A DNA stretch of 64,000 bases from Chiloscyllium plagiosum (GCF_004010195.1 NC_057738.1:31130793-31194792); one strand, 5' to 3'; shown: positions 5,184 to 63,414, numbered from the stretch's first letter. The notes: generated by a model not told the origin, from the sequence alone. Program-made: numbers and translations.

Positions 5184-5470
5184 GGTGTTTTACACTGCAA
5201 AGAAAATAAATATAAAACACAGATGCTCAGTATAACAAGATTCTCAAGAAGGTTAATGAATTACCAAGTTTTGAAACAAAGGAAAGAACTAGCTTCAAAG
5301 AAATCACAAGCTGGGCGTTAGCAGTGAAATGTTTACAACTTTGCAGTAAAACTGGACAGGCTTTTATTCTTCATATGACTAAGATGACGTTGCTGAGGTA
5401 ACCTTGATCAATTGATGAATGCTTGAGACAAAGACATTTGTCTTCATTGCATTCATATTGGAAAACAAGT

Positions 5471-6008
5471 TCAAAGTTTGTGAGAAGATTTGTAGCTCGG
5501 GTGCTCGTTGTTGTGGTTCTGTTCGCCGAGCTGGGAATTTGTGTTGCAGACATTTCACCCCCTGTCTAGGTGATATCCTCAGTGCTTGGGAGCCTCCTGT
5601 GAAGCGCTTCTGTGATCTTTCCTCCGGCATTTGTAGTGGTTTGAATCTGCCGCTTCCGGTTGTCAGTTCCAGCTGTCTGCTGCAGTGGTCGGTATATTGG
5701 GTCCAAGTCGATGTGCTCATCCACAGATTCAATCAATAAGCACATCGACTTGGACCCAATATACCGATCACTGCAGCGGACAGCTGGAACTGACAACCGG
5801 AAGCGGCAGATGAGCACATCGACTTGGACCCAATATACCGACCACTGCAGCGGACAGCTGGAACTGACAACCAGAAGCGGCAGATACAAATCACTATAAA
5901 TGCCGGAGGAAACATCACAGAAGCACTTCACAGGAGGCTCCCAAGCACTGAGGATGTCACCTAGACAGGGGACGAAATGTCTGCAACACAAATTCCCAGC
6001 GCGGCGAA
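5471..6008. mobile_element. Fold-back Penelope-like non-autonomous element with two hammerhead motifs
   Basis: 12-bp TSD tggaaaacaagt (5459-5470, 6009-6020); arms of ~200 bp in inverted orientation; internal ~75-bp tandem duplication; hammerhead cores at 5546-5585 (-) and 5945-5984 (+). Confidence 0.8.
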
Positions 6009-7790
6009 TGGAAAACAAGTATTTAAATCAACATTGTACTTCCCAGTCAGCTGACGTAAATTGCTTAACTTTAAGTGAAGCAGATGATGTGCCACTGCAA
6101 TAATTGGAAACATTTGTGAAAGAAAAAGAAGCGTTGAGGCCCAAATGCAGATTCTTGGAGATAGAAGTGGTAAATAGCCCATTACATGTGGTTAAAACTC
6201 AATGTTAAAGGCATTATACGCCATGTTCCTATCATGAAAGAGATGCAGGCCTCACCCATTTTTTTTCTCATAATGTACTTTAAAATAAAAAATATTTTCC
6301 AAAATAAATAATATTCCTCACAGATTTCTCTATAGCAGCTATGAATCCTCAACTAGCATTCATCAGCAAATTGTGAAAGGTCAAATGCACACATGACAGC
6401 TTTCTTCTACACTTTGCTCTTCCACCACAGACCACACAGACATGGATCATTGTCACAAGATACATCTACGCCATAAAACAATGCAGAAAGATTACCTAAT
6501 CAAAGTTAGGAAAATTATTAAGGCATTGCAACAGAAGTGATTGTTCAGCCCCCTCAGCCTGTTACGCTATTCAATCAGATTATGTCTTATCTTTTGACAT
6601 TAAGCCATTGATTTTAATTTCTTTGAGTAGTTTATTAATCTGCACTCATGAATCAAGTTACTGAGCATGCAATATCACCCAAGAAGATTCAACTTTATTA
6701 TATTGTGTTCCATTGTCCATCATCAACACTTCAGTCAATGATCAGCCATTGTTATTCATGTTTCAAAATTTGTCTCTTCTGAACAGCTAATAAAGGAAGC
6801 CTTTGAAAATGCTGGAATTCTGTTTTTTTATGACTGATGTGTTATCTTGAAGTTCAGGGTGTTGACATAATAGGAGCAGAAGCAATACAGTATTGCTGTT
6901 TTAGCCAATCTTTAATCCCATGTTGCAATAAGTCATTCAGCTCATAAAGCTTGTGTCAACAATTCTCCTTAGTTTCACAGAAGAACCCACAAAATGAGAT
7001 CATTTTGCAATTGATCATCCACTGATAGGTTCAATGAGTTTCCAACATTACCTTCAAATATTTGCTCAAGGAAACCCCTGTTCTTATATAAGAAGATACA
7101 TTGACAAATAACAAGATTGTTCCAGATGAAGAAACTCTTTTGATCCTTATTTATTCATTCATCCATAAATATCCTAAAGTTTCCCATTACAGTTTTTAAA
7201 TCTTAAATGCAACCCCAAGTTTTCACATGCACTACTTCACCTGGAAATTTATACTGACCGTTGATTGACCATTTCTAATTCCCTTGTTATCTGACTTGTA
7301 GCTATTTCTATACCATTCACAAAACACCTATGTTCGTCATTTTTGCAGAGGGTTGTATAGCACAGAAACCCTATTAGGCCCATGCACGTTCCACACAGGT
7401 TACCTCCCATCTTAATTCCCCCTGCGGTATCAACACAGCTTCCTCTTCCCTTCTTCCTCGCTTCATGGTCTGGCTTCCCTGTAAATGCATCTGTGCTGTT
7501 TTTCATGACCACTCCATGTGGCCACACGTTTCATATTCTCACCACACTTAGTAAAGAACTTCTGCCTGATTTATTATTTCCCATTTACAGCACCCTGATT
7601 ATGAGCTCCCCTGCAAGTGGAACCAACCCAAACACTTTCAGAATTTGAAATATCTCTCTTCTGTAACCTCTCTACCCTTATTTCTAGGGAATAGTCATCC
7701 CTTATAGTTACACCTTCAAAGTTTGGGAGAAGATTTGTAGCTCGGCTGCTCGTTGTTGTGGTTCTGTTCGCCGAGCTGGAAATTTTTGTT

Positions 7791-7830
7791 GCAAACGTTT
7801 CGTCCCCTGTCTAGGTGACATCCTCAGTGC
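7791..7830 (-). ncRNA. Minimal type I hammerhead ribozyme motif
   Basis: Reverse complement GCA-CTGAGGA-tGTCaCC-tagaca-GGgGAC-GAAAC-GTT-TGC: stem I GCA/TGC, conserved core, stem II, palindromic ACGT in place of stem III. Confidence 0.72.
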
Positions 7831-8108
7831 TTGGGAGCCTCCTGTGAACTCACCAGAACGAAAGACCCGATACCCAGCATGAGCAAAACTAATGTAGTGT
7901 ACAAAATCCCAAGCCAAACAAAGAACAGCCAGGGAACTCCTAAAAGCATGGTACTCATCCACAAACTCCATCAACAAACACCTCGACCTGGACCCAATAT
8001 ACCGGCCACTACAGCGGACAGCTGAAACTGACAACCGGAAGCGGCAGGGACAGGCCACTATAAATGCTGGAGGAAACACCACAGAAGGGCTTCACAGGAG
8101 GCTCCCAA

Positions 8109-8148
8109 GCACTGAGGATGTTACCTAGACAGGGGACGAAACGTTTGC
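8109..8148 (+). ncRNA. Minimal type I hammerhead ribozyme motif
   Basis: gca-ctgagga-tgttacctagacaggggac-gaaac-gtt-tgc. Confidence 0.7.
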
Positions 8149-8322
8149 AACAAAAATTTCCAGCTCGGCGAACAGTTACACCTTCTGTTGTGGTACCACT
8201 CCTGTAACCTAGCTTTTACATTTTCTAAAGGGCTTTCAGGTCCATTGAAACATGTGGACCAGAACAGTGCACAATTCTTTAAGTATGATTTCACCAATTT
8301 CTATAAATATTTATACTGTGTT

Positions 8323-8495
8323 AAAAATCACACAACACCAGGTTATAGTTCAACTGCCGTTGACAACCACCTGATGAAGGAGCGTCCCTCCGAAAGCTAG
8401 TGTGCTTCCAATTAAACCTGTTGGACTATTACCTGGTGTTGTGTGATTTTTGACTTTGTCCACCCCAGTCCAACACAGGCATCTCCAAATCATAG
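8323..8495 (+). mobile_element. Mini Penelope-type insert with hammerhead (second family)
   Basis: 12-bp TSD ttatactgtgtt (8311-8322, 8496-8507); short inverted 5' segment; cac-CTGATGA-aGGAG-cgtcc-CTCC-GAAA-GCTA-gtg at 8368-8402. Confidence 0.75.
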
Positions 8496-8964
8496 TTATA
8501 CTGTGTTTTGAATTATATTGCATCTGTTTCTTCCTACCTTTCAATTTCATTAGAAATTACTTTGACAATTTACTCTGAATTCCCAGAATACTGAATTCAA
8601 CTCAGAAGTTTGCAGGTGGAATTTTTTCAAGTGTCTCTTGAATTCCAGGTAAACTAGACCATATTGCTGTCAGCTCTGTATTTGGGTTGTTGCTGCTACC
8701 AAGGGGTGAGCATAGTAAAATGTGATCATTTCTTTTGTATTGTGTACTGTTCATTTGCTTGTAGAAAGATCCCCAAATGTACTTTTGCAGTGTGAACAGA
8801 GATTTATTTTCCTCTGTCTATTTTATCCACGTTTTTGAACATGACCCCTAAACTGATCTGCTTCTAACCTACCCATGTCTCTCCAATGTCCAGCAACTCC
8901 TTCATAAATCTTTACTGTCTCAAAATTTCCATCTTAGACTCTCTCTTCATTTTGGGAAAAGAAT

Positions 8965-10471: not shown

Positions 10472-10683
10472 TTTTAGGGTTCAGAGTGTGTTGCTGGAGA
10501 AGCACAGCAGGTCAGGCAGCAGCTGAGGAGCAGGAAAATCAACGTTTTGGTCCGGAGCCCTTCATCCGGCACAAAACGTCGATTTTCCTGCTCCTCTGAT
10601 GCTGCCTGACCTGCTGCGCTTTTCCAGCAACACACTCTGTACTCTGATCTCCAGCATCCGCAGATCTCACTGTCTCCTAGTTG
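10472..10683. mobile_element. Mini fold-back Penelope-type insert (third family)
   Basis: Inverted arms (gagtgtgttgctgg.../...ccagcaacacactc); TSD acttca(g/c)ttcaaa at 10459-10471 and 10684-10696; damaged hammerhead core at the centre. Confidence 0.7.
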
Positions 10684-13025: not shown

Positions 13026-13236
13026 GGTCGGAGGGTGTAGTGCTGGAAAAGCACAGCTGGTCAGGCAGCATCCAAGGAGCAAAAGAATCGACGTTTCGAT
13101 TCCTGATGGCCAATTCCTGATGAAGAGCTTATGCTCAAAACATTGACTCTCCTGCTCCTCAGATGCTGACTGACCTACTTTTCCAGCACCATACTCTTTG
13201 ACTCTGATCTCCAGCAGCTGCAGTCCTCACTTTCTC
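13026..13236. mobile_element. Mini fold-back Penelope-type insert nested in another Penelope-derived repeat
   Basis: TSD ctgaga(t/c)tctccag at 13012-13025 and 13237-13250; inverted arms; ctgatgaagagcttatgctcaaaac core. Confidence 0.7.
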
Positions 13237-14925
13237 CTGAGACTCTCCAGCACTGTTTTTATGTCAAATCTCTGGCATCTGCTGTATTTTGCTCCTGAAT
13301 TGACTTATTGGTCTCTGTGGCTTACAAGGTTGTTCCTACGTATGGAAGAATTTACTGCTGAGGAGAAGTTCCGTATGTTGGGCTTGTACTCATTGGAGTT
13401 TAGGAGGATCACTGAGTGACCTTCTAGAAAAATACAAGGTTCTTCAGGTCGTTGAGGGGTAAATGCAGAAAGGTTGTTTCTCCTTGTGGGGACAATTGAT
13501 GACCAGAGTAAGGACTTACCCAGTTAAGCCAGAGACGATGAAGAATTTTCCCGTCTCAAAGCGCTGTTATATACTTGTTTAAATGCTCACTGCATAATGG
13601 TAGTATGCTGCAGTGCATTCAAGGCATCAGAGTTACTGTGACAACATGCACTTTCACATGCATGTTGAAGTCAGGAGCTCCGGATCGTGATGGGAGAGCA
13701 TCCAAACGTCTGCCTATATGCCTAACCAGGAATCTCCCCTGCTCCTACCACCTGCCAAAGGTAGGTGTTGCAAGAATTTATAGAGTGATACTCAACCTGA
13801 TTGACCATGTTATGACCACAACTTGTATTTCTAATAATGACTCTGAACTGGAGGAGCTGTAGTCATTTGGTTTCTTGGTCTTTTCTTAATTGAGCAAATA
13901 GCCATTTGTAATTCTTTAATTCAAAGGGCACGATTCTTGAATCTGGGAGCTTTGGAACATGACTAATGCATTTTCAATTTACATTTAAGCATCCCATGGT
14001 GGAAAACATCACTTTCTGAACTCGTGCCATTAAATCCAATCTTTATTCCTGTGCCTGTGGAATTCATTGCCACAGAACGCAGTAGAGGCCGGGACGTTGG
14101 CTGTCATCAAGGCAGAGATTGATAAATTCTTGATCTCGCAAGGAAGTAAGGGCTATGGGGAGATTGCGGATAAGTGGAATTGAAATGCCCGTCAGCCATG
14201 ATTAAATGGCAGAGTGGACTTGATGGGCCAAATGGCCTTGCTTCCAATCCTATGTCTTATGGTCTTATGGTCTAACTCAAGTTCCTCTTCTTTGTCATGT
14301 TAATGACAAGAGCCCAACAATAGTCAGTCATTCATCTGGGATTGATTAATTTTGTGGGTAACTTTACTTGAAACAAGTTATGAGATAACTTCAAGTGGCA
14401 AACCAATTGTTTTCTGATGGAGTAGACCATACAGATGCAGAAGGAGAAAGTGAGGACTGCAGAGGCTGGAGATCAGAGTCAAGAGTGTGGTGCTGAAAAG
14501 CACAGACAGTCAGGCAGCATCTGAGGCCTTCATACAGACGCAGAGCAGACTAAACAGGCAGAGTTGCACCATTGTATACACACAACATATAGTGTCCTTA
14601 AAGGTAAACACTCTTAAACTGGAAAGGAACACATACACGATCCTAAATATCTGTAATATTTCCTTGGAAATTCTGGTATTGCATTCTGTGTCTATGCTGG
14701 AAGCCTGTGGAAAGTTTTTTGGAAAATAATGAAAAATTGATGGACTGACTATGCTAACAACTTAATGGGAAAAATGTAAACGTGGGAGCTGGAAAGGCAC
14801 AGCAGCTCAGGCAGCATCTGAGAAACAGAAGAGTTGACATTTCGGGCATAAGCCCTTCATCATAAATGTGGAGGGGGAAGGGGGCTGAGAGATTGAAAAG
14901 AAATCAAAGGAAATACTTAAATTAT

Positions 14926-18300: not shown

Positions 18301-20205
18301 GATAATCCCTCCATGGAAATTATCATCTCTCAAATACATTGTACCTTTCAGTTCAACTACTCCCTGTGCTGGCAAGTCCTACATTCTCACCACTCCTTGG
18401 GTGAGGTTTCAGCTGAAATCCCGATAGGATTTCTTGCCAATTCTTTGATATCATTGGCTTCTGGTTATGCTGAATATTTCTGCACTAACTCTTTCACTTC
18501 ATAACACGTCAACTATTAGAATTGCATTAATAAGTCTGAAACTCAATCAATTTTACAAATCAATAAGCCTGTCTGAACTCCTGAGGTTTTACAAAATATA
18601 TTCTTGTTCCACAACTATCTTATCATTTGTATCTGTCCTTCCTCCCATCATCCTTGGGTCTACAAATTCATTTAAGCTGCCTCCATCATTATTATTTAGG
18701 TTCACGTATTTAAGTGGTGAAGCTGCCATTGCTTGTTTTCTTGAAGTCAAGCTGGTGCCCTATCAAGGTTATCTGTTTTCCCTATTTGTCATACAGTCTC
18801 CCTCGCTGACAGATTGGGGACTCCTCTCCACTATTTATAGCCTTTTGTTTAAAGAAAATCAGCCATCTTTCTTAAAGGGAGATGGAGATTGCAATTCTTA
18901 ATCTCTCAGTACTCAATAGCCAAAAGATTCTTTATGACTGTAGGATCATACTTTTCCTGTAATTCTTGCTGAACTACAAACTTCAAGCTGTCTTGTTCCA
19001 GACACCATTGTACCAGACTGTCTAATAGAAACATCTGCAGCTGTGGGTTTGTCCAAAACTCCTTGTATTTTAATTTGTAAGTTTCTTTGTTACCTTGGAT
19101 TTATCTCATTCTCAAAGCTATTGTTGTCCTAACTTATGATCACACCTTGATGCTGCACTATAGAAACTATTTCTGAATCTACCACTAAAGATGGTCCAAT
19201 TTCCATGATAGGTTCTTTTTACATTGACGCAACTCTGCGATATTTTATTTTCTTGTGTTCCTTGATTAATGTAATTGATACCCCAAGCCAAAGACTTTGC
19301 TTTTTAAAAAATTTCACTGATGGGATGCAAGCGATACTGACTGGGCCAGCATTTCTTGCCCATTCTAGTTGCGTTGGAGAATGTGGTGGTGAGCTGCCTT
19401 TTTGAACTACTACAGTCCACTTGGTGTCGATACAACTGTGACTAGCTTTGACTATGCTTCAAGCCTAATAATTAAAGTAAATATTACTCACAAAAATAGG
19501 TCAGCCTTCAAACCAAAGGGGCTGGTCGTAGTAACTTTAGATGTTGTTTTGGAGTTTGCAGAGTTGTCCTGGAGCGTTTTTAAAAAACTTTTTAAACATT
19601 GGAGCACAGTCTCCAGTGTAATGCAGACTTTTGTCAGGCAGCAAATATTTTATACTCCTGAGTTATTCCCAATGTATTGCATTCCTCACTCAATAGAAAT
19701 GAAGGGAAACATTTAGATTCAAAAAATGTTTTCATAGATCGTTAGCCATTTATTTATTGCTCGTTGGCAAAAATGCTGCACAAGAAAACCAGTGAAACTC
19801 TGCTCTTTGATTTTAACAAGTCGACTTGTTAAATCCCAAAACCAGCTAGCAATTTACCCAAAAGCTGGATGGATTTAAATGCATGCACATTATATCTGCA
19901 AAGTCTTTTAACAAATAATTCGATCAACGCATTTTAAACTCAGTCATTTGAATAGATCCCTTTAATAAAAAGCAAAATACTGCAAATGCTGGAAATCTGA
20001 AACACACACAGGGGATGCTGGAGAAATGCAGGAGGTCTGGCAGCATCTGGGGGGAGAGTTAACATTTTGTGTCTGATAATGACTTCTTCAGAACCAATCG
20101 GATTTGAAAGGTTAACTGTTTGTCTCACCACAGATACTGCCAGACCTGCTGAGTTTCTCCAATAGATTGCTTATCTGACCTTTACTCTCCTTTATTTATG
20201 AGATT

Positions 20206-25423: not shown

Positions 25424-26303
25424 CTGCAAGTGAAGAGAGATTATTATCAAAACTAGGGAGCATTCCAAAATGGAAAATAATTCCAAAGGCAGGAGGGTTC
25501 AAATTGAAGCTTCCATTCACAAAGCAACAATCTGTTCAGAGAGAGCTTTCTGACATTAATCAATGTCAGTGTGGTATATGGCACCCACAATCACTGCTTC
25601 ACCTGGAGTTGCACAAAAAAGCAGCAATTGGGAACTTCAGGAACAAATAGACCACGCTCAAACAAAATGCTCCCTTTACAGATGCACAGCCATGTGTCAG
25701 ACTTGATGAGAACACACAATGCAACAATTTTGCTGCACTCACCAACCGATAAATTAGAGGGAACATCCGCATGGCACTAGATGACAGTAAGGCCATAAGA
25801 TGTAGGAGCAGAAGAAAGCTACATGGTCCATCAAGTCTACTTCACCATTTAATGAAATCATGGTTGACGTGATAATCCTCAGCTCCACTTTCCTGGCTTT
25901 TCCCCATAACCTTGTAGTCTCTTTTGATTAGAAATCTGTCTATCTCAGCCTCAAATGTAATCAATAACACAACATAGACAACCCTCTGTGGTTAAGTATT
26001 TCACAGACTCACTGCATTGCCTAGTTTTAGCATGAGCTTCCTAGTTTTATAAAACTGGAAGAAGTGCAGATGCTGGAAATCAGATACAAAATCAGAAATT
26101 GCTGGAAAAGCTCAGCTGATCTGGCAGCATCTTTGGAGAAATGAGAGTTAAAGTTTCAGGTTTTTGCTCAGATCTGGTCTCACCCCAGTAATCTGTACCC
26201 CTTGATTATTTAGTATTTTTGGTATGCTGTTAGTGTCCTCTACTGTGAAAAATAATGCAAAGTATTTGTTCAACTCCTCTGCCATTTCCTAGCTCCCCAG
26301 TAT

Positions 26304-26408
26304 GATATTCCGTATTCCTAACGAAGGGCTTTTGCCCGAAACGTTAATTTTACTGCTCCTCGGATGCTGCCTGAACTGCTATGCTTTTCCAGCACCACTC
26401 TAATCTAG
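26304..26408 (+). mobile_element. ~105-bp hammerhead-type Penelope end insert
   Basis: 10-bp TSD tccccagtat (26294-26303, 26409-26418); ctaacga-agggcttttgccc-gaaacgtt (mutated core). Confidence 0.65.
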
Positions 26409-26509
26409 TCCCCAGTATTTCCCGCCCTCATTCACTGAGAATTCTATTGCCTGTCTTCTCTTTGTGTATTTAAGAAAGTCTTACTATCTGTTTTGTTACT
26501 TTCTAATTT

Positions 26510-32799: not shown

Positions 32800-35600
32800 T
32801 GATTGAGAGTGGAGCTGGAAAAGCTCAGCAGGTCAAGCAGCATCAGAGGAGCAAAGGGAGTCAATGTTTCAGGACAGAACCTTTCATCAGGACTGAGGGA
32901 GGGAGTAGGGGCTTGTGAAATAAATAGAGGGAGGGTGGTGCGGCTGGGAGAAAGGTGGGTGGGATGGTGATTAGTGGATGCAGTTAAGGGGTGGTTGTGA
33001 TTAGTCAGTGGGAAGGGTGGAGCAGATAGGTGGGAAGGAAGATGGACGGATATGGTCAGGTCAAGGAGGTGGGGCAGAGAAGGAAGGCTGGGCCTGGGAT
33101 GAGGTGGCAGATTTGGAAGCTGGTGAATTCTATGTTAAGACCGTGTGGTTGTAAGCTCCTGTGGCAGAACATGAGATGTTCTTCCTCCAGTTTGCGTGTG
33201 ACCTTGTGTTGACATTGGAGGAGACCAAGATGGACATGTCATCAAGAAGGTTGAAATGGATGGCAACTGGAAGGTGAGGTCAATTGGAGTGTATGAAAAT
33301 GAGTGTTTCCTGAACTGTTCCATGGGTTTGCGCTCGGACTCCCTGATAAATAGGGCATCACATCAGGAGCAGTGGATGCAATAAATCAGGTTCAAAGAAA
33401 TGCAAGTGGATCTTTGCCAGACTTGGAATGATTTTTGAGGCCTTGGATGGAGGCGAGTGGGGAGGTGTTGGAGGAGGTTTTGCACCTCCTGTGACCACAA
33501 GAGAAGGTACCAAGTGGAGGAGAGGTTGGTGAGGAGTGTGGACCTAACAAGGGAGTCATGGAGGGAACGGTCCCTGCGAAACTCGGATTAGAGGTTGGGA
33601 GGGAAATGTCAAGTGGTAGAAGTGGAGGAGAATGATGCGTTGGACTTGGAGATGAATGGGGTGGAATGAGAGGATCGGGGACTCTATCCTTCTTGTGGTC
33701 GAGGGGTTTTTCTAGAGAGCAGAGGCGTGGGAAATGGAGGGGATGCAGTTGAGGGTATTGTTGATAATGTAGGAGGGAAAATTGCAGTCATTGAAGTAGG
33801 AGGACATCTGGGATGTCTTGGAGTGGAACAGCTCATCCTGGGAGCAGATAAGGCAGAGGCAGAGGAATTGGGACTACTGGGAGGGGGGGGGTGGGGGGGG
33901 GGGGGGTGTTATCGAGGTAGCTGTGGGAGTTGGTGGGTTTATAATAGATGTCGGTGCTGAGTTGGTTGCCGGTGATGCACACAAAATGGACCCAAAAAAA
34001 AAAAGGGGAGGGGGTAGTCAGAGATGGACCAGGTGTGTTTGAGGTCAGGGTGGAAGGCGTTGGTGTGGTGAATGATCTGTTCAAGCTTCTCATGGGAGCA
34101 CGAGGCAGTGCCGATACAATCATTGATTAGATTAGATTAGAATACTTACAGTGTTGAAACAGGCCCTTCGGCCCAACAAGTCCACACTGCCCCGCCGAAG
34201 CGCAACCCACCCCATACCCCTACATTTACTCCTTACCTAACACTACGGGCAATTTAGCATGGCCAATTCACCTGACCTGCACCTCTTTGGACTGTGGGAC
34301 GAAACCAGAGCACCCGGAAGAAACCCACGCAGACACGGGGAGAACGTGCAAACTCCACACAGTCAGTCGCCTGAGGCGGGAATTGAACCAGAGTCTCTGG
34401 CGCTGTGAGGTAGCAGTGCTAACCACTGTGCCACCGTGCCGCCCACATTGATGTAGCAGAGGAAAAGGTGAGGGATGATGCCAGTGTAGCTGCAGAAGAG
34501 GGACTCTTCCACTTATCCTACAAAGAAGCAGGCATAGCTCAGACCCACGCAGATACCCAAAGCCACCCCTTTGGTCGGTAGGAAGTGGGAGCATTGAAAA
34601 GGAAAAGTTGTTCGGGGGAGGACCAGTTCTGCTAATCGAATGATGGTGTCAGTGCAGGGGAACTAGTTGTGTCTGTGGGAGAGGAAGAAATTGAAGACCT
34701 TGAGGCCTTCTTCATGGGGGATACAGGTGTAGAGAGACTTGATGTCCACGGTGAAGATGAACTATTGGAAGCCATGGAACCGAAAGTTATGGAAAAGATC
34801 AATGGGGTGGGTGGTGTCCCAAATGTAGGTGGGGACTTTCTGGACCAAAGGCGACAAGACAGAATTGTGAAAAGAGGAGAGAAGTTCAGTGGGATAGGAG
34901 CAGGCAGAGACGATTGGCCGACTGGGGCAGTCAGGTTTATGAATTTTGGGGAAAAGATAGAAACAGGCAGTGTGGGGTTGGGGAACTGAGGTTGGAGGCT
35001 GTGGATGGGAGATTTTCCGAGCTGATGCGACTGTGGATGGTTTTGGAGATAATGGTTTGCTGATGACAGGTCAGATTGTGATTGAGGGGACGGTAGGAGA
35101 AGGTGTCGGTGAGTTGGTATGTGGCTTCCTTGAGGTAGAGGTCGGTGCACCAAACTACCACTGCGACGCCCTTGTCAGGATATTTGATGGTGAGACTGGG
35201 GTTGGAGTGGAAGGAGCAGAGGGACACTTGGATGGGGAGGAGGTTGGAGAGATTCAGGTGAGTGATCTCCGGACTGCAGTTAGAGATGCAGAGGTCAAGG
35301 GAGGGGAGAAGGGTAGGAAGCCAGGATGGGGTGTCCAGTAGGATGGAGTTTGTTGGAGGCAGAAGGAGGGGTCTTTGGAGGGTGGGTGGGATTCATGTTT
35401 GAAGTAGTAGGCACGGAGGTGGAGATGGTGGAAAAAAAGTGTTCAACATCTAAATGTGTGCAAAATTTGTTGATGTGTGCATAGTGGAATGAAAGCAAGC
35501 TCTTTCCTGAGGACTGACTGTCCTCCGTGAGGGAGATGTCAGGGGAAATGATAAATACCCGGCAAGACTTCGGGCTGGAGCCTGGTGTAGAGCTGGAGTT
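32800..35600 (-). mobile_element. Penelope-like retroelement (RT + GIY-YIG + hammerhead-bearing 3' end), degenerate
   Basis: LTIKYPDKGVAVVVW and YYKPTNSHSYLD motifs; GIY-YIG region ~33300-33420; hammerhead remnant ~32866-32890; interrupted by a SINE. Confidence 0.87.
34128..34445 (-). mobile_element. Full-length young HE1/V-SINE-type SINE nested in a Penelope-like element
   Basis: Complete tRNA-like head (ggcggcacggtggcacagtggttagc), (ctaat)n tail, 7-bp TSD cattgat (34121-34127, 34446-34452). Confidence 0.9.
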
Positions 35601-37139
35601 GGGAGTGGGGATGGTGATTGTCTCGGTCTCTGGGAAATGCATGTGGGAACAGTCATGTGATGGGTCATGTGACTATTACCACAGATTTCTGCAGGTTTTC
35701 CCCACATAAACAATATTCATCTCTTCTATTCTTTTGCCAAAGTTCGAAATCTCACATTTTCCCACATTATATTCCATTTATCAAGTTTTTGCCCACTCGC
35801 TTAACGGGCCTATATCCCTTTGTAGACTCATATAATCCTCGCCACTTACCTTCTTACCTAATTTTGTCATCTGCAAATTTGGTGATGGTCCACTTACTTT
35901 CCCCATCTAAAACATTAATCAATCCTCAATACTGATACCTGTGGTGCTTCACTACTTTCATGTTGCCATCCTGAAAATGCCACCTTTATCCCAACTCTGC
36001 TTTCTATTATATATAGTGAATCCTCCATTTGTTATAACATGCACCTCCAACACATGGGCTCTTATCTTAAGTAGGAGAAAGTGAGAACTGCAGATGCTGG
36101 AGATCAGAGTCAAAAGTGTGGTGCTGGTAAAGCGCAGCTGGTTAGGCAGTATCCAAGGAGCAGGAGACTCTGTTTCAGGCATAAGCCCATCAGGAATGTA
36201 GGCCATAGGCCCTTCATCAGTGATTCCTTCCCCTTGTTACTAGTTAACTCCAGCCATATGGTTTCTACATTTCATTCCCAAGATCATTTCTGCCAGTCTA
36301 CTAATTCTATTGCTTACTAACAAAGCCATCCCATCACACTTGTCTTCCTGCTTGTCTGTCCTTTTGAAAGGTCACTTATACCTAAATATTTAGCTTTGAT
36401 TTCCTTGTACTCATGTCTCCCTAATGGCTATAATATCTATTTGTGCCTTTAATTCATTTATTTTGAGATTTTTTAAAAAAATCAAAGTTCAGACCAACTT
36501 AAAGCTAGAACAAGGATCTACATTCTATTACTCTAGATTTTTCTGTGCTTGTCCATTACAATTCAAGGACCAACATTTTATATATCTCCACTATTCCTAA
36601 GTTCTCTGCATTTCAAAATGTACTCGTTTTTTGGTTCAAGATGGATGATCTCACTTGTGTACAAATCCATCTACCGCCATTCTGCCAATTTAATTTGATC
36701 TGTCATTTTATGATCCCCATTTATTCTAGAACAAAGAACAATACAGCACAGGAACAAGCCCTTCAGCCTTCCAACCCTGCGCCAACACATTTTGCCCTTC
36801 CATACTAAAACTGTCTTCACTTACAGGATCCATATCCCTCTATTCCCTTCCTATTCATGTATTCATCCAGGTGCTTCTTGAATGCTGCTACTGGGTTGGC
36901 TTCCACCTTCCATCTGACAACACGTTCTAGGCACTCAGCATCCTTTGTGCGAAAAACATGTCTCACATATCTCTTTTAAATTCTGCCCCTCACACCTTGA
37001 ACCTGTGGTCCCCTAGTAATTGAGCCCTCCACCCTGGGAAAAAGCCTCATACTTTCCACTTTATCCATGCTATTCACAATCTTATAAGCTTTTATCAGGT
37101 TGCCCCTCAACCTCCTGCGTTCCAGTGAAAACAAACCCA

Positions 37140-37926
37140 AATAAATCCATAAAGACCATAAAGGAATTGCAAAACCTGCACCCACACCTCCTCTCTCCAC
37201 CGCCCCCCCCCTTCCAAGGCCCCAAAGAAGCCTTCCACACCCATCAAAGTTTCACCTGCACTTCCACACATGTTATTTATTGTATCCATTGTTCCTGATG
37301 CGGTTTCCTCTACATTGGTGAGACTGGATACCTACAAGCAGGATGCTTCAGAGAACATCTCCAGGACACCCACACCAATCAACCCCACCGCCCTGTGGCT
37401 GAACATTTCAACTCCCCCTCCCACTCTGCCGAGCACATGCAGGTCCTGTGCCTCCTCCACCGCCACTCCTTTACCATCCAGCACCTGGAGGAAGGCGGCC
37501 TCATCTTCCGCCTTTGGATCCTTCAACCCCAGGGCATCAATGTGGACTCCACCAGTTTTCTCATTTCCCCTTCCCCCACTCCCTGCCACCTTACCCCAGT
37601 TCCAACCTTCCAGCTCAGCACCACCCTCACGACCTGTCCTTCTGTCAATCTTCCTTCCCACCTATCTGCTCCATCCTCCTCTCCGACCTATCACCTTCAC
37701 CCCCACCTCCATCCACCTATTACAGACTCAGCTACCTTCCCCCAGCCCCACCCCATTTATCTCTTGACCCACTAGGCTCCCAACCTCATTCTTGATGAAG
37801 AGCTTTTGCCCGAAATGTTGATTTTCCTGGTCCTCGGATGCTGCGTGACCTGTTGTGCTTTTCAAGCACCACTCTACTCTTGACTCTGATCTCCAGCATC
37901 TGCAGCCCTCACTTTTGCCTGGCCCT
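37140..37926 (+). mobile_element. Penelope-like 3' fragment (GIY-YIG + hammerhead) nested in CR1
   Basis: FTCTSTHVIYCIHCS...YIGET, AEHFN, PQGIN motifs; 14-bp TSD tgaaaacaaaccca (37126-37139, 37927-37940). Confidence 0.88.
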
Positions 37927-38573: not shown

Positions 38574-38910
38574 CGTTGGGTAAATGATTTAGGGAGAGAT
38601 GGCATGCAGGTAGCAGAATCTTGGATTAGCTCAAATCAGAGAGAGAATACTAAAAAAGCCTGGAACTCACATCAAATACGAATGGCAATGAGGAAAGTTA
38701 GATGGGTTTGGAACAGTGTAAAGAGTGTGGTGCTGGAAAAGCCGTTGGGTAAATGATTTAGGGAGAGATGGCATGCAGGTAGCAGAATCTTGGATTAGCT
38801 CAAATCAGAGAGAGAATACTAAAAAATCTGGAACTCACATCAAATACGAATGGCAATGAGGAAAGTTAGATGGGTTTGTAACAGTGCAAAGAGTGTGGTG
38901 CTGGAAAAGC
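38574..38910. repeat. Tandem duplication, 2 x ~169 bp
   Basis: Units 38574-38742 and 38743-38910 are nearly identical. Confidence 0.95.
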
Positions 38911-39081
38911 ATCCGAGGAGCAGGAAAATCGATGTTTCGGGCATGAGCCCTGATTCCTGATGAAGGGCTTCTGCCCGAAACATCATTTCTCCTGCTCTTC
39001 CGGTGCTGCCTGACCTGATGCGCTTTTCCAACACCATACTCTCATCTCTGATCTCAGGCATCTGCAGTCCTCACTTTCTCC
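38890..39081. mobile_element. Mini fold-back Penelope-type insert with hammerhead
   Basis: Inverted arms; attc-CTGATGA-aGGGC-ttct-GCCC-GAAA-catc at ~38953-38985. Confidence 0.72.
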
Positions 39082-44149: not shown

Positions 44150-45160
44150 GAGAAAGTGAGGACTGCAGAGGCTGGAGATCAGAGTCAAAAGGTGTGGTGC
44201 TGGAAAAGCACAGCAGGTCAGGCAGCATCCGAGGAGGAGAATCGACATTTTGCGCATAAGCTCTTCATCAGGAATGTGATGGTAGCTGGGAAGGAGATAG
44301 GTAGATGCAGTGCGGCGATGATTGTGATAGGTCAGTGGGGAAGGTGGACCGGATAAGTGGGAATGAAGATGGACAGGTAAAGAGGGCGGTGCCAAGTTGG
44401 AGGGTTGGATCTGGGATGAGTTGGGGTTAGGGGAGATGAAGAAACTGATGAAGTCAACGTTGATGCCATGTGGTTGAAAGGTCCAAAGGCGCAAGATGAA
44501 ACATTCTTCCTCCAGTTGTTGGGTGGCTTGGATTTGGCGGTGGAGGAGGCCCAGGACTTGCATGTCCTTGGAGGAGTGGGAGGGAGAATTGAAGTGTTTG
44601 GCCACAGGGCGGTGGGATTGTTTGGCGAGTGACCCCCAGAGATGTTCCCCGAAATGTTTTGCGAGTTGGCGTCCTGTCTCCCCAATCTAGAGGAGACCAC
44701 ATTGAGAGCAACGGACACAGGAGATGAGGTATTTGGATGTGCAGGAATATCTCTGCCAGATGTGGAAGCATCCTTGGGGGTCTTGGAAGGAGGTGAGCAT
44801 GGGCAGGTGTGGGTGCAGGTTTTACACTTCTTGCGACAGCAAGGGAAGGTTCCAAGTGTGGAGGGTGGGTTGTTGGGGGACCTAGACCTAACAAGGGCCT
44901 GGTCTCTGCTGAATGCTGATAGGGGTGGGGAGGGGTCTGACTGTAGGTGGCCGAAATAGTGGAGAATAATGCACTGTGTCTGGAGATTAGTGGGCCAGAA
45001 GGTCGAGGACCAGGGAGGTTCTATTCTTGTTGTGGTTGGAGTGGTGGGTTCAAGGACAGAGGAGCGGGAAGTGGAGGAGATATGCTGGAGGGCGTTGTTG
45101 ATCATTGTATTGGGAAATTACGGTCCTTGAGATAGGAGGCCATCTGGGATGTCCTGGAGT
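44150..45160 (-). mobile_element. Penelope-like 3' fragment (GIY-YIG + hammerhead end)
   Basis: GTFPCCRKKCKTC, AKHFNSPSH, PHGIN motifs; hammerhead remnant ~44243-44275. Confidence 0.85.
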
Positions 45161-48810: not shown

Positions 48811-48811
48811 T

Positions 48812-49080: not shown

Positions 49081-50442
49081 GGAGTGACCTGCAGAAACAA
49101 GGTTAGACCCATCCTCTGCAACCCCAGGGACAGGTAGAACCTCAACACATATTGACACTTGGTATTTGCACATAGCCCTTACTGAGTAGAAATGTTGATT
49201 AAGATCTGAGCAAAGAGTTTATTTTTATTGGGGGTATGAGAAACGCAGTAAGGTTGTGAATGCTGGTCAACATTGCAGGAGCAGTGTTCCAGTTTTGCAT
49301 ATAATGGAGTGACAACAGATTGCAGAACCAAAGAGAGAAACCAGGAATTTCACCAAATGTAATATCTTAGTAATTTCAAATTCATGATATATGCAATTAT
49401 TAGATTAGAAAGTCATGCCCCTGTTCTCAGAACACAATTTCCTTGACAGTGTGTATTGCTTCACCCAGAATGAGTAAAAACAAAATCACTAAAACCTGAA
49501 AGAGTTGGTTCTGCATACACCAGCAGCCCCTCAATGAAAACGAGTAATTGCAAATTCCCTGGACTCAAGCTAATCTTCACTCAGTTTGTAGGAAGACAGT
49601 TCAAAATTCCAGTTGGCTCAGGTTCTAGTTTCCATTACAGTTCTGTCCAACCTCCTAGACTGCACCCTAAGCAAATTTGAGCTCACTCAAAACTCTTCTA
49701 TTCATATCCTCACTCAGACAGAGTCCCCATCACCCAGAAACAAGAACAGAAATTGCTGGAAAAGCTCAGCAGGTCTGGTAGCATCAGTGGAGACAAATCA
49801 GCATTAACGTTTCAGGTTGAATGACCTTTCCTCAGAACCAGTTTCACTGCCCCAACACCTAGAGCTCACTGATTTATAATGAATCAGAAAGGGTTGATTG
49901 AGGAGTTGGCAGGCTGGCCCTGTACACACTGGAGGTTAGAAGAATGAGAAGTGATCTTATAGAAGCACAAGCTGGGGGTTGTAGGGGGAAGAGGCAATGA
50001 GGCATGGAGAGGATGTTTCTCCACGTGGGGATATCTAAACGTTGGCAGCACAGTTTCAGAATAAAGACTCCACCATTCAACATAGAGGTGAGTGGACATT
50101 TCTGCTGTAGAAAGCTTGTCAATCTTTGAAATCCTATAACCCAAGGATAGGATGTCTATGTTATTAAATATATTCAGGGGTGAGACAGACGTATTTTTAA
50201 TCAGTGAGGGAATCACGAATTCTAGACAGCAAGCAGCAAATGGAGTGGAGGCGACAACCAGATCAACTTTGGTCCAAGTGAACGGTGGACTCGAGGGGCC
50301 GAATGGCCGATCTCAACTATAATTTATGTCCTGTTCCAACTGCACCTCCATGTTAAAATCCTCCTCTTTGCCTTCTAACCATTACTTTCTCAAGTGTAAT
50401 TAAGGATTGGCAATAAATGCCGGCCAAGCCAGTGACACCCAT

Positions 50443-51427: not shown

Positions 51428-53002
51428 CATACAATGCCTGATTCACAAACATTAAGGTTCAACCATTCTGACAACACTATTTTCCCCCCATTCCTCTGAA
51501 ACTGTTTTCAAAGTAGGTTAGTTAGTTGAGGTTTGACTGTAGTGTCTATAACAGGTTTACAGCACAGAAACGGACCGTTTCCTTCATATGCACCAACCAG
51601 ACATCCCCATGTGATCTAGTCCCATTTGCCACATTTGGCCCATATCCCTCCGAATAATTCCTATTCATTTACCCATCCAGATGCCTTTCAAATGTTATAA
51701 TTGTACCAGACTCCACCACTTCCTCTGGCAGCTCATTCCACACACACACTACTCTCTGCTTTAATTAGAGTTTTATGACTAGGATGTAAACAATTTTCAA
51801 CAAAGTTAATTGACACCATTTTGGGGAAAGATTGCAGGAATTTTATATAGGAGAAAGTGAGGACTGCAAATGCTGGAGCTCAGAGTCGAGAGAGTGGTGT
51901 TGGAAAAGCACAACAGGTCAGGCAGCATCGGAGGAGCAGGAGAATCGATGTTTTGGACATAAGCCCTTCAACAGGGATCAAATATTCCAAATGTCTCACA
52001 ACCACACACAAAAAGTGGTTTTGTGGGCGATCATTAAGAACACAAGCCGTTATACCCTTGTATAACAGACTACTGCAAATAAAACAACTTTCCTTATACA
52101 AAGCACAATTATGGGAGAGGAAGTTAATTCTGGTCTTGCAGAGTAATAAATGTAACAAGGGACACTCTCAATTAAAACTGAATCCAACTGGAAATAAACG
52201 AAGGTTACCATTCCAGAACAAGGCAGGTTGACTGATTAAGGTTGAGGGATACCGCTTACTAAATAGAAATATGAGCATTTCTAAAGGTTTCCATGAGAAA
52301 TGTTCAGGAATGGCTTTTCAGATCAAATCAACAGGTGGTACAGGCGTTAGATAATTCCAGAGAATTAGTAAGGAGCACTTAAATTATTCCTTGCTAATCC
52401 CGACTCATTGAGTCGGCACTGAAACATTCAGAAATTTAGGAAAGATGAATCACTCAGCCAGTAATCTTTGGGGTGTGGTTATGTTGCTTTAAGAGCATGG
52501 GAGACCGAGCAGTTATGATGGTCAGATTACCGAACCAGTCATTGCACAGGCCTGGTCTCACTATCCAGAGAAACCCCAGCGCATGGAACATTTCAACTCC
52601 GGGATTTAGGATCGAGCTGTGAAATACGGGAGAATAATTTAAGCCACATCCAGTTGTGTAGGGATAACGGGGCCACAACAAAAACAAAAAGGGGGAAGAG
52701 GGAATAATCGGGAAAGAGCGTTAGCTTGTTTCTGCATTCTCCCCTCCTGGCGAGGGAGACAGCGAACAAGGACCGGCCTTTGCAATGGGCGAACGCTATC
52801 CCTCCCAGTCGCACTGTCGAAGTGCAGAAGGTATTCCTGTCTGAAGCAGAGCAGGGGGAGGAGTAGCAGACCCACCCGAGTAGCGGCTGAGCCAGGGAGA
52901 GGCGCAGTGCTCGGGTTCACTCAGCGCTGTTATTGCACTCTGACAGATGACCACAGTAACACAGCAACAGTACAGGTACCAGCTGATAGGAGGCATACTC
53001 AC

Positions 53003-53095: not shown

Positions 53096-53355
53096 CTGGT
53101 CCCCAGAGAGCCCAGACACATGACAGTGGGAGGGATAGGAGGGCTGGCCTTTACGCTGTTTCCTTTTTGATCCTGTTCCGCTCAACCCGGGATCTCAGCG
53201 CAAAAACAGCGCAACTCAGCGCGGTCTGGCAGCGTCAGTGGCTGAGACAGCAGAGTTTAACATTTCAAGTGTTGGGATTCTTCACCAGCTTCCTGTTCCT
53301 ACTCAGAAACAAAACCAAACATTTCGAGTTTGATTAAAAACCATATAAAAGTGTA

Positions 53356-53391
53356 GTTCTGAGGAAGGGTCGCTGGAGCCGAAATGTTAAC
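53356..53391 (+). ncRNA. Minimal hammerhead motif (fourth family)
   Basis: GTT-CTGAGGA-agggtcgctggagcc-GAAA-tGTT-AAC. Confidence 0.55.
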
Positions 53392-53479
53392 TCTGGTTTC
53401 TCTCCACACATGCTGCCAGACCTGCTGAGTTTTTCCAGCAATTTCTGTTTTTGATTTCCAGTATTCATGGCACTGTACC

Positions 53480-53765: not shown

Positions 53766-53930
53766 AATTCAGCCTGTTCTTATTCCCTGCCTTAACTAGA
53801 GCCCATTGAGATCCCAGCAACCAGCATTTTTATAAAAACCAAAGGAACTGTGGTTCCTGTAGATCAGAAACAAAAACAAATTGCTGGAAAAACTCAGCAA
53901 GTCTGGCAGCATCTGTGGAGAGAAAGTAGA

Positions 53931-53966
53931 GTTAACGTTTCGGGTCCAGTGACTCTTCCTCAGAAC
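53931..53966 (-). ncRNA. Minimal hammerhead motif (fourth family), core intact
   Basis: Reverse complement GTT-CTGAGGA-aGaGTC-actg-GACcC-GAAAC-GTT-AAC. Confidence 0.7.
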
Positions 53967-54049
53967 TGCACTTTGATATTGTTTTTATTAAACCTGTTCA
54001 GTTTACTGATGGTAGTTTAATAGAGTTTTTAAAAAAGTACCCAGGGTGA

Positions 54050-55239: not shown

Positions 55240-55708
55240 GGAGAAAGTGAGGACTGCAGATGCTNNNNNNNNNNNNNNNNNNNNNNNNNNNNNNNNNNNN
55301 NNNNNNNNNNNNNNNNNNNNNNNNNNNNNNNNNNNNNNNNNNNNNNNNNNNNNNNNNNNNNNNNNNNNNNNNNNNNNNNNNNNNNNNNNNNNNNNNNNNN
55401 NNNNNNNNNNNNNNNNNNNNNNNNNNNNNNNNNNNNNNNNNNNNNNNNNNNNNNNNNNNNNNNNNNNNNNNNNNNNNNNNNNNNNNTGAGCCACGGGGTG
55501 GTTGGGTTGGTTGGTCCAGGTGTCCTAGAGGTGTTCTCTGAAACGTTCCGCAAGTAGGCGGCCTGTCTCCCCAATATAGAGGAGGCCACATCAGGTGCAG
55601 CGGATGCAGTAAATAATGTGTGTGGAGGTGCAGGTGAATTTGTGACGGATATGGAAGGATCCCTTGGGGCCTTGGAGGAAAGTAAGAGGGGAGGTGTGGG
55701 CGCAAGTT
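55240..55708 (-). mobile_element. Penelope-like 3' fragment spanning an assembly gap
   Basis: GIY-YIG remnant (YIGETGRLLAERFREHL frame); 15-bp TSD atcactatcctggta (55225-55239, 55709-55723). Confidence 0.82.
55265..55486. other. Assembly gap (222 N)
   Basis: Run of N. Confidence 1.
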
Positions 55709-56200
55709 ATCACTATCCTGGTACCAAATAAAATTCATGCAGTGTGCCCCAATGACTATCGCCCAGTGGCTCTGACTTCCATGATTATGAAGTGCTTTGA
55801 GAGGTTAGTCGTGACTCGTATCAACTCTACTCTCCCAGTTTGCCATGATCTCTTGCAATTCGTCTACCATCACAGTAGGTCCATGGTAGACACTATCTTC
55901 CTGGCCCTACACTCATCCCTGCAATACCTGGAGAACAAGAATACCTACATCATGCTCCTACTCATTGAAGGTGGGGCTGTAGTCAACGCTATTATTCCAA
56001 AAATACTAAATCTCCAAACTCCGAGACCTAGGTCTCTGCTCTACCCTCTGCAAATGGATCCTCGAATTCCTGACCCACAGACCGCAATCAGTGAGAGTAG
56101 ACCATGGCACCTTCTCCACGACAGTCCTCAACACTGGTGCCCAGCAAGGCTGCATACACAGCCCCTTACTATACTCCTTGTACACTCATGACTGCATGGC
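55709..56200 (+). mobile_element. Rex1/Babar-type LINE RT fragment
   Basis: NDYRPVALTSMIMKCFERLV motif. Confidence 0.8.
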
Positions 56201-60515: not shown

Positions 60516-61409
60516 ATTTGACAAGGTGAGTAGCCACTGTTAGTTAGATAGTAGATAGTACATGGGCTATCAAGCAGTCTTGTCTAACCCCAGTTTGAAT
60601 TTTGAAGGTATCTATTTCATACTTCCCTGGTCATTTACCATCGTATCATTATAAAGCAGGTTCAGGATTGTGATGATGTTTCTCGGACATCCAAATGTTT
60701 GGAGCAGAGCCATATAATTTTTTCAGTGAAAGCTTTGGATCAGGTTGATAAATGAAGAATATCAACTCTAACATAAAAACAGATCACTTCCCTTCTGTAG
60801 CATTGTCCATCATTGCCACTGCTTGAGCTCATCTACTACTGAATTGCTCTCCCACGTCTTGTACCTTGAGATTTAATTATTGCAGTGTCCCCTGACCAGC
60901 CTCCCATTTTCCACACTCCATAAATGTGAACTCATCCAAATAAATAAAAAAAACCTATTTCACAACCATGTCTCCTTTACCTGGACACACACAACTGTGG
61001 ATGCTGGAAATCTGAAATAAAGAGAAAACAGAAATCACTGGAGTAACTCTGCAGGTCTGGCAAGTGTCCAGCCAACTGAGCTAACTGACCACCAAAGTGA
61101 CAGATTGGGGCTCACCCATCATCGTAGCAGAAACCAGTGTAAAATCCAGCAGGATGTTTGAGTGAGTAAGCATTTTCTACAGCATAAATGCCAATGAAAT
61201 AATGGAGTGAGACCCCCCTGGAGAGCAATGATTCCAAAATGGAGTTCATAGCAGTTTCTGAATGATTATATTTTTCACCCAGACAGCAGTGGGGATCTGG
61301 ATGCATTGCCTGGGAGGGTAGATGAGGCAGTAATCTCACAATTTGTAAAAAGTACTTGGATGACATATAATATTCAAGGCAATATGCCAAAAGTGCAAGT
61401 GTATAGAAT

Positions 61410-62100
61410 TAGAGTCATAGAGTTAAACAACGTGGAAACTAATACTTCGGTCCAAACAGTCAATGCTGACCACATTCCCAAACTAAATTTGTCCCACTTT
61501 GCTGCACTTGGCCCATATCCCTCCAAACCTTTCCTATTCATGACCTCATTCAAATGTCTTTTAAATGTTGTAACTGTATCCGCACCCACCACTTTCTCTG
61601 GAAGTTCATCACACATGAATCATTCATTCTCTGTGTAAAAAAGTGGCCCCTCATGTCCTTTTTAAATCTTTCTCCTCTCACCTTAAAAATGTGCCCCCGA
61701 GTTTTGAACTCCCCCACCCTAGGGAAATGACCCTTGCCATTCACCTGATCTATGCCACTTATGATTTTATAAACCTCAATAAAGTCACCTCAACCTCCTG
61801 AGCTCCAGTGAAAAAATGTCTTAGTCTTTCCAGTCCATTTTTTGTATCTGAAAACCTCTATTCCCAGCAACATCCTGGTAAATCTTTTCTGAACCCCCTC
61901 CAGTTTAATTGTATCCTTCCTGTAGCAGGGCGACCAGTACTGCACACAGTACTCCAAAAGTGGCCTCACCAACATGCTGTACAACTCAACATGACGTCCC
62001 AACTCCTACACTCAAAGGTCTGAGCAATGAAGGCAAGTGTGCTAAACACCTTCTTAAGCACACACCCCCTACCACTCATGAGGCAAATTTCAAAGAATTA
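61410..62100 (-). mobile_element. CR1-type LINE 3' part
   Basis: LVRPLLEYCVQYWSP, KTRGH..KVRGERF, ELPEKVV motifs. Confidence 0.88.
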
Positions 62101-63170
62101 TGTTGATGGGCCATAAGGCCTCTTCTGTACAGAGTGATTCAATGATTTTCTCTGGGGTCCACAAAATAAAGTGGAAATGTCTTTGGTCAACAATAAACGA
62201 ATGGGTGGGGACCAAGATATGTTGTGCTCCATCTCCCTCTCCCTCACCCCCTCTCTGCCTTCCAAGTCGCCTGGTTTCTTTGTTCTCCTGACTCCGCCTT
62301 CCTCTCTCTCCTGTTACTGTCCCCAATACCTGCTCTTTCCACGTTCCTAGTCTCCCTCTATCCTCCCTGCATTGTAGAGAGAATCACTGTTAACTGTGAG
62401 TGAATAGCAGTTTTTGAAAGTATTATTAAATAAGTTGACATGAAACACGATGAATATTGTAATTACAGCTGGAGGTTTGTGATTACTTACAGATTGGGAT
62501 GTAGGGTCCTTAGACTGAAAAACGTTTTGTGAACCCTTGTCCTGGAGTATTTGACCAAGTTGATTGGTATTGCACTGTACGCACTACTATTTCAAAAATG
62601 CAAAGTAATCCCACCTTTACAAATCTTACCTGGGTGCCCCAAAGCAGCTTTCAATTGTAATATAATCGCCGCCCCCTACAGGTTAGCTTCCAGAGTGAAA
62701 GGTTCAGGTGAGGGGGAGCAGGGACTGACAGAGATTGGATTCTCTCCTGCTCGGGGCACAATCAGTTTGCTGGTTTAATCGTTAACCCGAAAACTGAACC
62801 CTGTGGGCCGGTTACAGCGTTTTATGGAGTTGATATGAACTTTACAGGGGAGTCTTTTTTTCAACTTTTAAGCAGTTTCTTCCATCTTTGGTGAACTCGG
62901 CTCACCATTTGCTGTAGTTTGTGGAACCGGAATAACCAGTTTATTCCCTGCTTTTTTAACCGCCTGGTTTCAGTTTGCCAGCAAGACGCTGCTGATGAAA
63001 GGTGAGGACTTTATCTTGGTTTGAGCTGAGTTTGGATAAGCCTTTTTCCGCCTTATTTACACCTTATCTTTCCTTTCTTTTACACACACATGCATACATA
63101 CATATATCTAAACACCTGGGACTTCGATTGGGGCGAACGATTGGCCTAATTCTGGTCCTATTAGGGTGAT

Positions 63171-63290
63171 TTGGAGATGCCGGTGTTGGACTGAGGTGGA
63201 TAAAGTTAAAAATCACATGACACCAGGTTACAGTCCAACAGGTTCATTTGGAAGCTAGTTTTCGGAGCGTTGCTCCTTCATCAGGTGGTT
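63171..63290 (-). mobile_element. 120-bp hammerhead-bearing insert (same family as 8323-8495)
   Basis: 16-bp TSD gtcctattagggtgat (63155-63170, 63291-63306); reverse complement cac-CTGATGA-aGGAGC-aac-GCTCC-GAAA-acta. Confidence 0.8.
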
Positions 63291-63414
63291 GTCCTATTAG
63301 GGTGATCTGACTTAGAGAGTGTTGTCAATCTCCTCTAGCACACGTAGGTCGGGCCGAGTGGTCTTCACCAGTGGGAAGCACTATCCCCGCTTTAACTGTG
63401 AAGCCGCTGTTTGT

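Follow-up and report, generated by a model that had tools for sequence, protein, structure and literature searches.

Penelope-like elements (PLEs) are known to carry minimal hammerhead ribozymes that are characterized by the conserved core boxes, a nucleotide left unpaired between 9 and 10.1, a G10.1-C11.1 pair, a palindrome at 15.2-16.2 and a short helix I, and that occur as several families per genome, mostly as single copies and with opposite-strand pairs lying 100-700 bp apart (PMC4209133, in the part of the text available). The same features are found in a 64,000-nucleotide stretch of Chiloscyllium plagiosum DNA (GCF_004010195.1 NC_057738.1:31130793-31194792, hereafter the window), in which a preliminary description had listed about 20 such motifs in four families, A to D. 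The four families are the terminal repeats (pseudo-long terminal repeats, pLTRs) of PLEs, and the mini-inserts of families B, C and D that begin at a preferred 5' end are probably run-off copies of capped, sense, uncleaved RNA begun 4-8 nt before the hammerhead core. Two points set this genome apart from the published cases. More than 37,000 exact motif matches were counted here, compared with about 4,000 descriptor matches in the coelacanth and about 9,000 in Xenopus, and a defined 5' start of single copies was not found described in the available part of that account, two supplement files of which contain no shark entry.

Other described systems come close to parts of this picture. The insertion units of endonuclease-bearing (EN+) PLEs consist of a pLTR, an inverted 5'-truncated copy and a one-sided tail of 30-40 bp in the accessible parts of two accounts (PMC8557442, PMC3846280). 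Fold-backs and target site duplications (TSDs) of about 8-17 bp are common to those units and to the present ones, in which the tail is found on about half of the inverted arms, and TATA and initiator (Inr)-like motifs were noted there in the Adineta pLTR. The same literature traced solo pLTRs to recombination or to deletion and weighed an antisense template (PMC3846280, accessible part), whereas many solo copies here have TSDs and a sense-strand extra G. With the Anolis Poseidon element PAc (Frangieh et al. 2024, PMC11167929, as far as its main text goes), family A shares an ATG where helix II begins, in the frame of the open reading frame (ORF), and a tail, between two 3' ends, that lies inside the ORF. 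Families B, C and D differ in being apparently of the Neptune type, which has a CxxC linker before the GIY-YIG domain, and the main text of that paper contains no TATA, cap or poly(A) mapping. Finally, non-LTR retrozymes are likewise small, non-coding, PLE-related and equipped with a type I hammerhead, but in the available portions of their descriptions (PMC7229834; bioRxiv 10.64898/2026.07.22.740005) they are tandem repeats with one hammerhead per unit that are processed to circles, whereas inserts of the window type are single or inverted, uncut and tied to autonomous families. The role of the PLE hammerhead, the RNA strand that is copied and the rebuilding of the pseudo-LTR are standing questions in this field (PMC8557442, PMC3846280, PMC2377424, in the parts available).

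The assignment to PLEs relies on linked coding sequence. Upstream extension of families A, C and D leads into a GIY-YIG coding sequence. In family B the GIY-YIG sequence lies upstream beyond a long 3' untranslated region (UTR) with a CA repeat, and the motif stands 481-808 nt downstream of it on the same strand with no intervening N (L271, L355, L209). A C-family ORF fragment matched Pfam GIY-YIG with an E of 1.6e-4, slightly short of the curated cut-off and the sole sub-threshold match among 7 locus fragments, and its Atlas neighbours carry HTH_animal, GIY-YIG and RVT_1; in the window's own decayed ORFs, Pfam found no GIY-YIG. Two 3' ends separated by a tail of 35-40 nt were observed in all four families. 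A classic unit is present at L198 (family A), where an inverted arm, a pLTR, an internally deleted ORF and a second pLTR follow each other between 11-bp direct repeats, and where an ATG at the helix II start is in frame with the ORF. Inverted partners of young copies whose 5' extent is short were found in 14/28 cases in A, 78/115 in B, 88/220 in C and 13/53 in D, about half of them with the tail. No intact full-length element was met among the copies recovered, which were broken or partly masked. The longest open frames were considered as intact elements and rejected, being largely N runs, and a tandem of family D at L199 was rejected as an element array, being a host duplication.

The families B, C and D appear to be of the Neptune type and A of the Poseidon type. 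A CxxC, zinc finger-like linker between reverse transcriptase (RT) and endonuclease (EN) was read in B and C, while the placement of D follows from its GIY-YIG and its 3' similarity to C. Family A, whose linker is only partly seen, was placed by its likeness to Anolis PAc and by a C-terminal motif that we take to be typical of Penelope/Poseidon. At five loci (L007, L008, L102, L209, L097) a PLE end of one family lies inside or beside an end of a second family (A with B, B with D and C in B), which suggests a common target preference.

As judged from the sequence, the window contains minimal type I hammerhead motifs, a known ribozyme kind, most of them decayed. A strict minimal-hammerhead descriptor in which an extra nucleotide, 9.1, was allowed gave 9 matches in the window compared with a mean of 0.1 and a maximum of 1 in 60 dinucleotide shuffles; without this nucleotide, the listed motifs were missed. 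An Rfam scan of the window gave no hammerhead and three microRNA-like hairpin matches only. All 20 listed motifs were recovered, at the exact position or at most about 40 nt away, and the claim that many are mutated holds as well, the invariant core boxes being kept in 11/20 (A 4/4, B 2/2, C 2/10, D 3/4; counted by hand). Three of the 20 (A7791, A8109 and B8368) are fully intact in core, G10.1-C11.1 pair, paired helix II, palindrome and helix I. In the commonest haplotypes of all four families the invariant core boxes, nucleotide 9.1 and the G10.1-C11.1 pair are present, which together with the GIY-YIG linkage bears out the identification as PLE-type minimal hammerheads.

The proposed layout of core, stems and palindrome was thus found with two corrections, namely an additional nucleotide that separates core and helix II in all families and a helix I that is paired at 3/3 positions in A, B and D and at 2/3, not 3 bp, in the commonest C type. 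As had been said, pairing is kept while stem sequences differ, since at least 3 bp of helix II are formed in 22/24 haplotypes seen at least 3 times, these being plain counts and not phylogeny-aware covariation. The palindrome at 15.1-16.1 (ACGT in A, C and D; AGCT in B) would permit a dimer. Lunse and colleagues reportedly described dimeric PLE hammerheads in 2017. Minimum-energy dimer folds gave exchanged helices rather than a catalytic dimer and are uninformative on the dimer. There are indeed four families, but C and D are sister Neptune families with common downstream sequence and the four contexts are therefore not all unrelated. Moreover, the C motifs at 32866, 37790 and 44243 are the ends of PLE remnants of 0.7-2.8 kb and do not belong to tiny inserts. 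TSDs of 10-16 bp were confirmed for 5/16 inserts tested (12, 12, 12, 10 and 16 bp, the 16-bp one overlapping the element ends), the other 11 having only 5-7 bp.

The very dense population of ribozyme motifs that had been suspected extends to the whole genome, which was taken as 3.56 Gb. Exact motif matches numbered 7,492 for A, 12,864 for B, 16,735 for C and 49 for D, compared with 0 for reversed controls, and downstream-pattern matches numbered 17,297, 27,832, 48,019 and 2,825, respectively. In 549 kb sampled away from ascertained centres, 187 copies were counted, 37 of which had a core-like pattern. Scaling gives about 1.2 million PLE end copies and 240,000 core-like ones, a rough estimate from a sample of one contig near young copies. 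For comparison, up to 120,000 canonical hammerheads are given for the axolotl in the available part of PMC7229834.

To count 5' ends relative to C3 of the hammerhead core, copies were gathered from surrounding DNA and by means of the sequence that follows the cut site downstream. Left out were hammerhead-ascertained copies and those at, or no more than 1.2 kb from, hammerhead-ascertained centres, as well as loci L111-130 and L191-210, copies of identity below 0.85, junctions containing N and D copies whose extension was wrong owing to an inverted arm in the reference; these counts precede the removal of 9 duplicates among 869 rows. Ends falling between -10 and 0 made up 44/95 in B, 107/237 in C and 20/43 in D (45-47%), compared with 2/60 in A (Fisher p 5e-12), and ends lying more than 150 nt upstream numbered 25 in A, 8 in B, 14 in C and 2 in D. 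Short inserts of B, C and D thus have a preferred 5' end in common, while family A shows ordinary variable truncation. The C edge at -4 was also seen in runs from three organisms, A, B and C (labels distinct from the families), with 150 reads among the X17 loose ends and 95, 50 and 67 in contigs of X4, X5 and X2.

No excess of 5' ends was seen at the cut site of any family, with 0/95 ends in B, 12/237 in C (10 in the preceding 5 nt), 1/43 in D and 1/60 in A lying at most 2 nt from it. B gave 18,808 matches, and in 97 of the first 100 the two templated bases before the cut are kept, the search pattern excluding flanks with C. Hammerhead cutting did not set the ends of the mini-inserts. TSDs of at least 8 bp flank 26/79 single start-site copies (B 4/17, C 18/44, D 4/18) and 2/79 controls (1, 1 and 0); many of these copies are therefore insertions of their own and not recombination solos. 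Near-identical, independent and perfect B hairpin inserts with a common 9-nt junction at the presumed start were observed at four loci (L031, L204, L205, L206; G000:C1), and such hairpins would fit two cDNA ends joined through an added base.

In family B, TATAAA is found 28-32 nt above the putative start at -8 in 36/49 long copies. Where B homology ends at -8, a G comes directly before it in 88 of the first 100 of 2,531 matches (counted by hand), with the next base outward mixed, while neighbouring positions have G in 19/100 and 23/100 and long B copies carry C, not G, at that position (37/39). The extra G is weaker in D (48/100, p 6e-6). In LINE-1, frequent 5' guanines of full-length copies were read as a sign of a capped template (PMC2831318, available part), and in the same way the B guanine may be a copied cap, the pile-up of ends in B, C and D marking the probable transcription start. 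Downstream, an AWTAAA signal is present in 127/155 B copies and in 0 of 96 A, 321 C and 77 D copies. In run X17, poly(A)-primed single-cell RNA of organism B, a related species, of which about 2% was read, poly(A) ends fall at +55, +57 and +58 of a long B copy (L037:1559-1562) in 1,404/3,254 reads, about 12-15 nt past ATTAAA/AATAAA and where the DNA is not A-rich; for family C no poly(A) was present among the loose ends listed. The order in B is therefore TATA, start, hammerhead, poly(A) site and RT start sites. The B poly(A) site being used in the related species, the family, put at about 160,000 copies, may have an influence on the 3' ends of host transcripts.

The pile-up of ends, the lack of an excess at the cut site, the TATA spacing of B and its extra G together lead to the reading that the mini-inserts are likely run-off cDNAs. 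The PLE RT would bind an internal tail site, one of two, near the 5' end of the capped sense transcript, would prime on the nicked target and would run off the 5' end after about 90 or 130 nt. Fold-backs might arise by end-to-end joining of two cDNAs, one primed on each target strand. This course of events has parallels in vitro, where the anole PLE protein started internally on RNA of the pLTR-ORF junction, gave products whose length tracked the RNA 5' end and primed on both target strands, the two 3' ends bounding the tail corresponding to two internal RT start sites (PMC11167929, available part). Start-site inserts have no upstream TATA box and would therefore be mostly dead ends, and long copies could come from read-through RNA that starts at a copy further upstream. 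For cutting, the hammerheads would need to be dimers or to be helped by protein.

Several observations weigh against this reading. The pile-up is about 10 nt wide rather than a single base, and only the above 26/79 single start-site copies have a TSD of at least 8 bp. Family C has only a TATA-like T/CTTAT at -31 to -37 (57/80) and D a TATA-like box in just 6/13 long copies. An excess of G is missing in C, the largest family (44 G and 56 A of 100, p 0.38). In B, 46 of the 88 guanines follow T and could originate from the inverted arm, although 17/20 stay G when the preceding base is A, and a terminal transferase adding C would yield the same G without a cap. Moreover, no RNA 5' end was seen in X17, which is poly(A)-primed and from a related species, or in X18, which gave 0 reads, and the B poly(A) reads may be host transcripts that use the signal. 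For neither run were sites listed at which many molecules start or stop, cut ends being invisible to a poly(A)-primed library. Finally, the distance of short C copies to other short ones (0.058) is smaller than that to long ones (0.099), with p 0.09 in the neighbour test.

This last point, with preferred ends at both 5' and 3' and a long:short ratio that varies among the C subfamilies (p 0.07), would fit short B, C and D copies that form independent SINE- or retrozyme-like families with masters driven by an internal promoter, such as Drosophila Penelope has (PMC2377424, available part), and mobilised in trans by PLE protein. Such an origin is rather unlikely, as every family and subfamily also has long copies reaching into the PLE 3' UTR or ORF, every B and C subfamily holds both long and start-site copies, short B copies are mixed in among long ones in sequence, the nearest long copy being at 0.052 and the nearest short one at 0.054, and the TATA box is outside the short unit. 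The window and loci totalling about 1.9 Mb contained neither multimers nor tandem arrays, rare arrays elsewhere being possible, and 860 copies had just 21 same-strand neighbours within 500 nt. With neither a short-only lineage nor tandem arrays, the separate retrozyme-like non-autonomous class that had been proposed is not supported, and the common end of short inserts at a likely transcription start downstream of TATA, not at the cut site, also counts against a separate ribozyme-bearing class. The chance that the templates were made by the ribozyme, as proposed in the available part of PMC4209133, is very small. Dimeric self-cleavage would free linear or circular unit RNAs for reverse transcription, and the intact consensus motifs, palindromic helix III and paired stems of four families, as read from the DNA, would be suited to it; besides the missing excess at the cut site, a circular template would neither stop at -4/-8 nor add a G, and hammerhead mutants had no effect on anole PLE insertion in vitro (PMC11167929, available part).

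Ordinary 5' truncation from the 3' pLTR, with RT stalling, or changing to another template, at the upstream border of the hammerhead fold or in the pyrimidine-rich UTR and no link to a start site, would account for the many ends inside the motif, for the C family without extra G and for the frequent microhomologies and palindromes at junctions. We consider it improbable, as a structural block would be expected at the 3' edge of the fold and not past it, family A has a longer helix II yet no pile-up, and the position-specific G and the B TATA spacing are left unexplained. In retroviruses and LTR retrotransposons, a U3-R-U5 organisation and minus-strand strong-stop DNA are known, and the order of B from TATA, start and hammerhead to AWTAAA, poly(A) site and RT start sites resembles it, PLEs differing in that they are target-primed, with a GIY-YIG endonuclease and no tRNA primer. 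The Neptune pseudo-LTR might be a true U3-R-U5 module, with the start 8 nt before the hammerhead and poly(A) addition 55-58 nt after it. As the poly(A) site precedes the tail, polyadenylated RNA would be without a 3' tail and RT would have to begin at the 5' copy, giving a target-primed strong-stop DNA that would jump from R to R to the 3' end in order to copy the element. The mini-inserts, hundreds of thousands in number, would be jumps that failed, LTR-like strand transfer would occur in PLEs and the hammerhead dimer would pair the R regions. This scenario is doubtful, for the poly(A) signal exists in B only and no cap-G scar of a strand jump was found in long B copies (3 substitutions and 0 insertions compared with 2,875 unchanged). 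A jump between repeats would be another source of long copies, and with this scar missing read-through is the simpler one.

The Neptune-type mini-inserts are thus likely a defined class of by-products that report on the template RNA, the ribozyme kind itself being already known. Roughly a million PLE end copies, by the above rough scaling, make up an extensive natural archive of what insertion has left behind. In the Neptune families the evidence points to a sense, likely capped and uncleaved template with the hammerhead within the first 40 nt of the transcript. The questions of start, cap copying, poly(A) read-through and ribozyme role now have exact coordinates. A literature search covering few subscription journals found no published account of start-site run-off copies or of a cap G in PLEs.

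In the window, the two Poseidon-type inserts of family A are fold-backs. The first (5459..6020) is flanked by a 12-bp TSD (5459-5470 / 6009-6020) and has a minus arm with tail and damaged hammerhead (5546-5585) and a plus arm with a GIY-YIG C-terminal remnant and a hammerhead (5945-5984) whose palindrome has decayed at CpG. The second (7706..8185) also has a 12-bp TSD, with intact motifs at 7791-7830 (-) and 8109-8148 (+) and a tail on the minus arm only. Two inserts belong to the Neptune-type family B. The one at 8311..8507 has a 12-bp TSD, a short inverted arm (8320-8354) and a plus arm (8363-8492) that goes from the putative start site (-8) to the tail end, is preceded by G at 8362 and contains an ATTAAA signal as well as an intact hammerhead motif beginning at 8368. 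The start-site-class insert at 63155..63306 (-) reaches from -8 to the tail end at 63167-63292, with a TSD overlapping both ends and a broken palindrome and helix I.

Family C is represented by three fold-backs, at 10474..10677 with a broken hammerhead core, at 13032..13237 with a plus arm from -4 (13113) to the tail and a mutated G12, and at 38885..39081 with a plus arm whose core is intact and whose palindrome and helix I are broken. Two stubs, 14789..14862 (-), which starts at +1 without C3, and 36064..36225 (-), with a duplicated and partly deleted hammerhead, are found beside two start-site-class copies with mutated cores, 26294..26418 (+; insert 26313-26408 with a 10-bp TSD) and 51850..51978 (-), which extends from -4 to the tail end. 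C motifs also terminate longer Neptune-type remnants. These are a fragmented one with RT and GIY-YIG pieces (32805..35608, -; motif 32863-32893, core intact and palindrome broken), a GIY-YIG remnant with a pyrimidine-rich 3' UTR (37212..37900, +; motif 37789-37819, C3 mutated) and a third one (44160..45117, -; motif 44244-44274, G12 mutated).

Family D comprises an old fold-back with mutated G12 (19981..20161), a start-site-class stub (49737..49838, -) with intact core in which the 10.1-11.1 pair is now A-U, and two copies with intact core and one helix II mismatch, 53327..53456 (+) and 53832..53995 (-), the latter with a tail. These two copies face each other with another repeat between them and have about 25 nt of upstream sequence in common that is unlike that of other long D copies.

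Further PLE sequences were noticed as well. End fragments of C or D, cut off inside or below the hammerhead, lie at 26051-26161 (-), 31651-31756 (-), 14443-14526 (-) and 12986-13025 (+), another long Neptune-type remnant with RT and GIY-YIG pieces at 16338-18205 (-), and a Neptune-type GIY-YIG remnant is interrupted by 222 N at 55265-55486. Other retroelements have left decayed pieces of integrase, RT-RNase H and RT at 26508-26879 (-), 54630-55106 (+), 22517-22885 (-) and 55646-56191 (+), and a repeat of about 700 bp is present at 15553-16251 and 29001-29701 with 96% identity. Finally, the last coding exon of a clade-B (ovalbumin-type) serpin is located at 30106-30507 (-), with a Pfam Serpin match at E 1e-47 and PAI-2 and leukocyte elastase inhibitor as best PDB matches.

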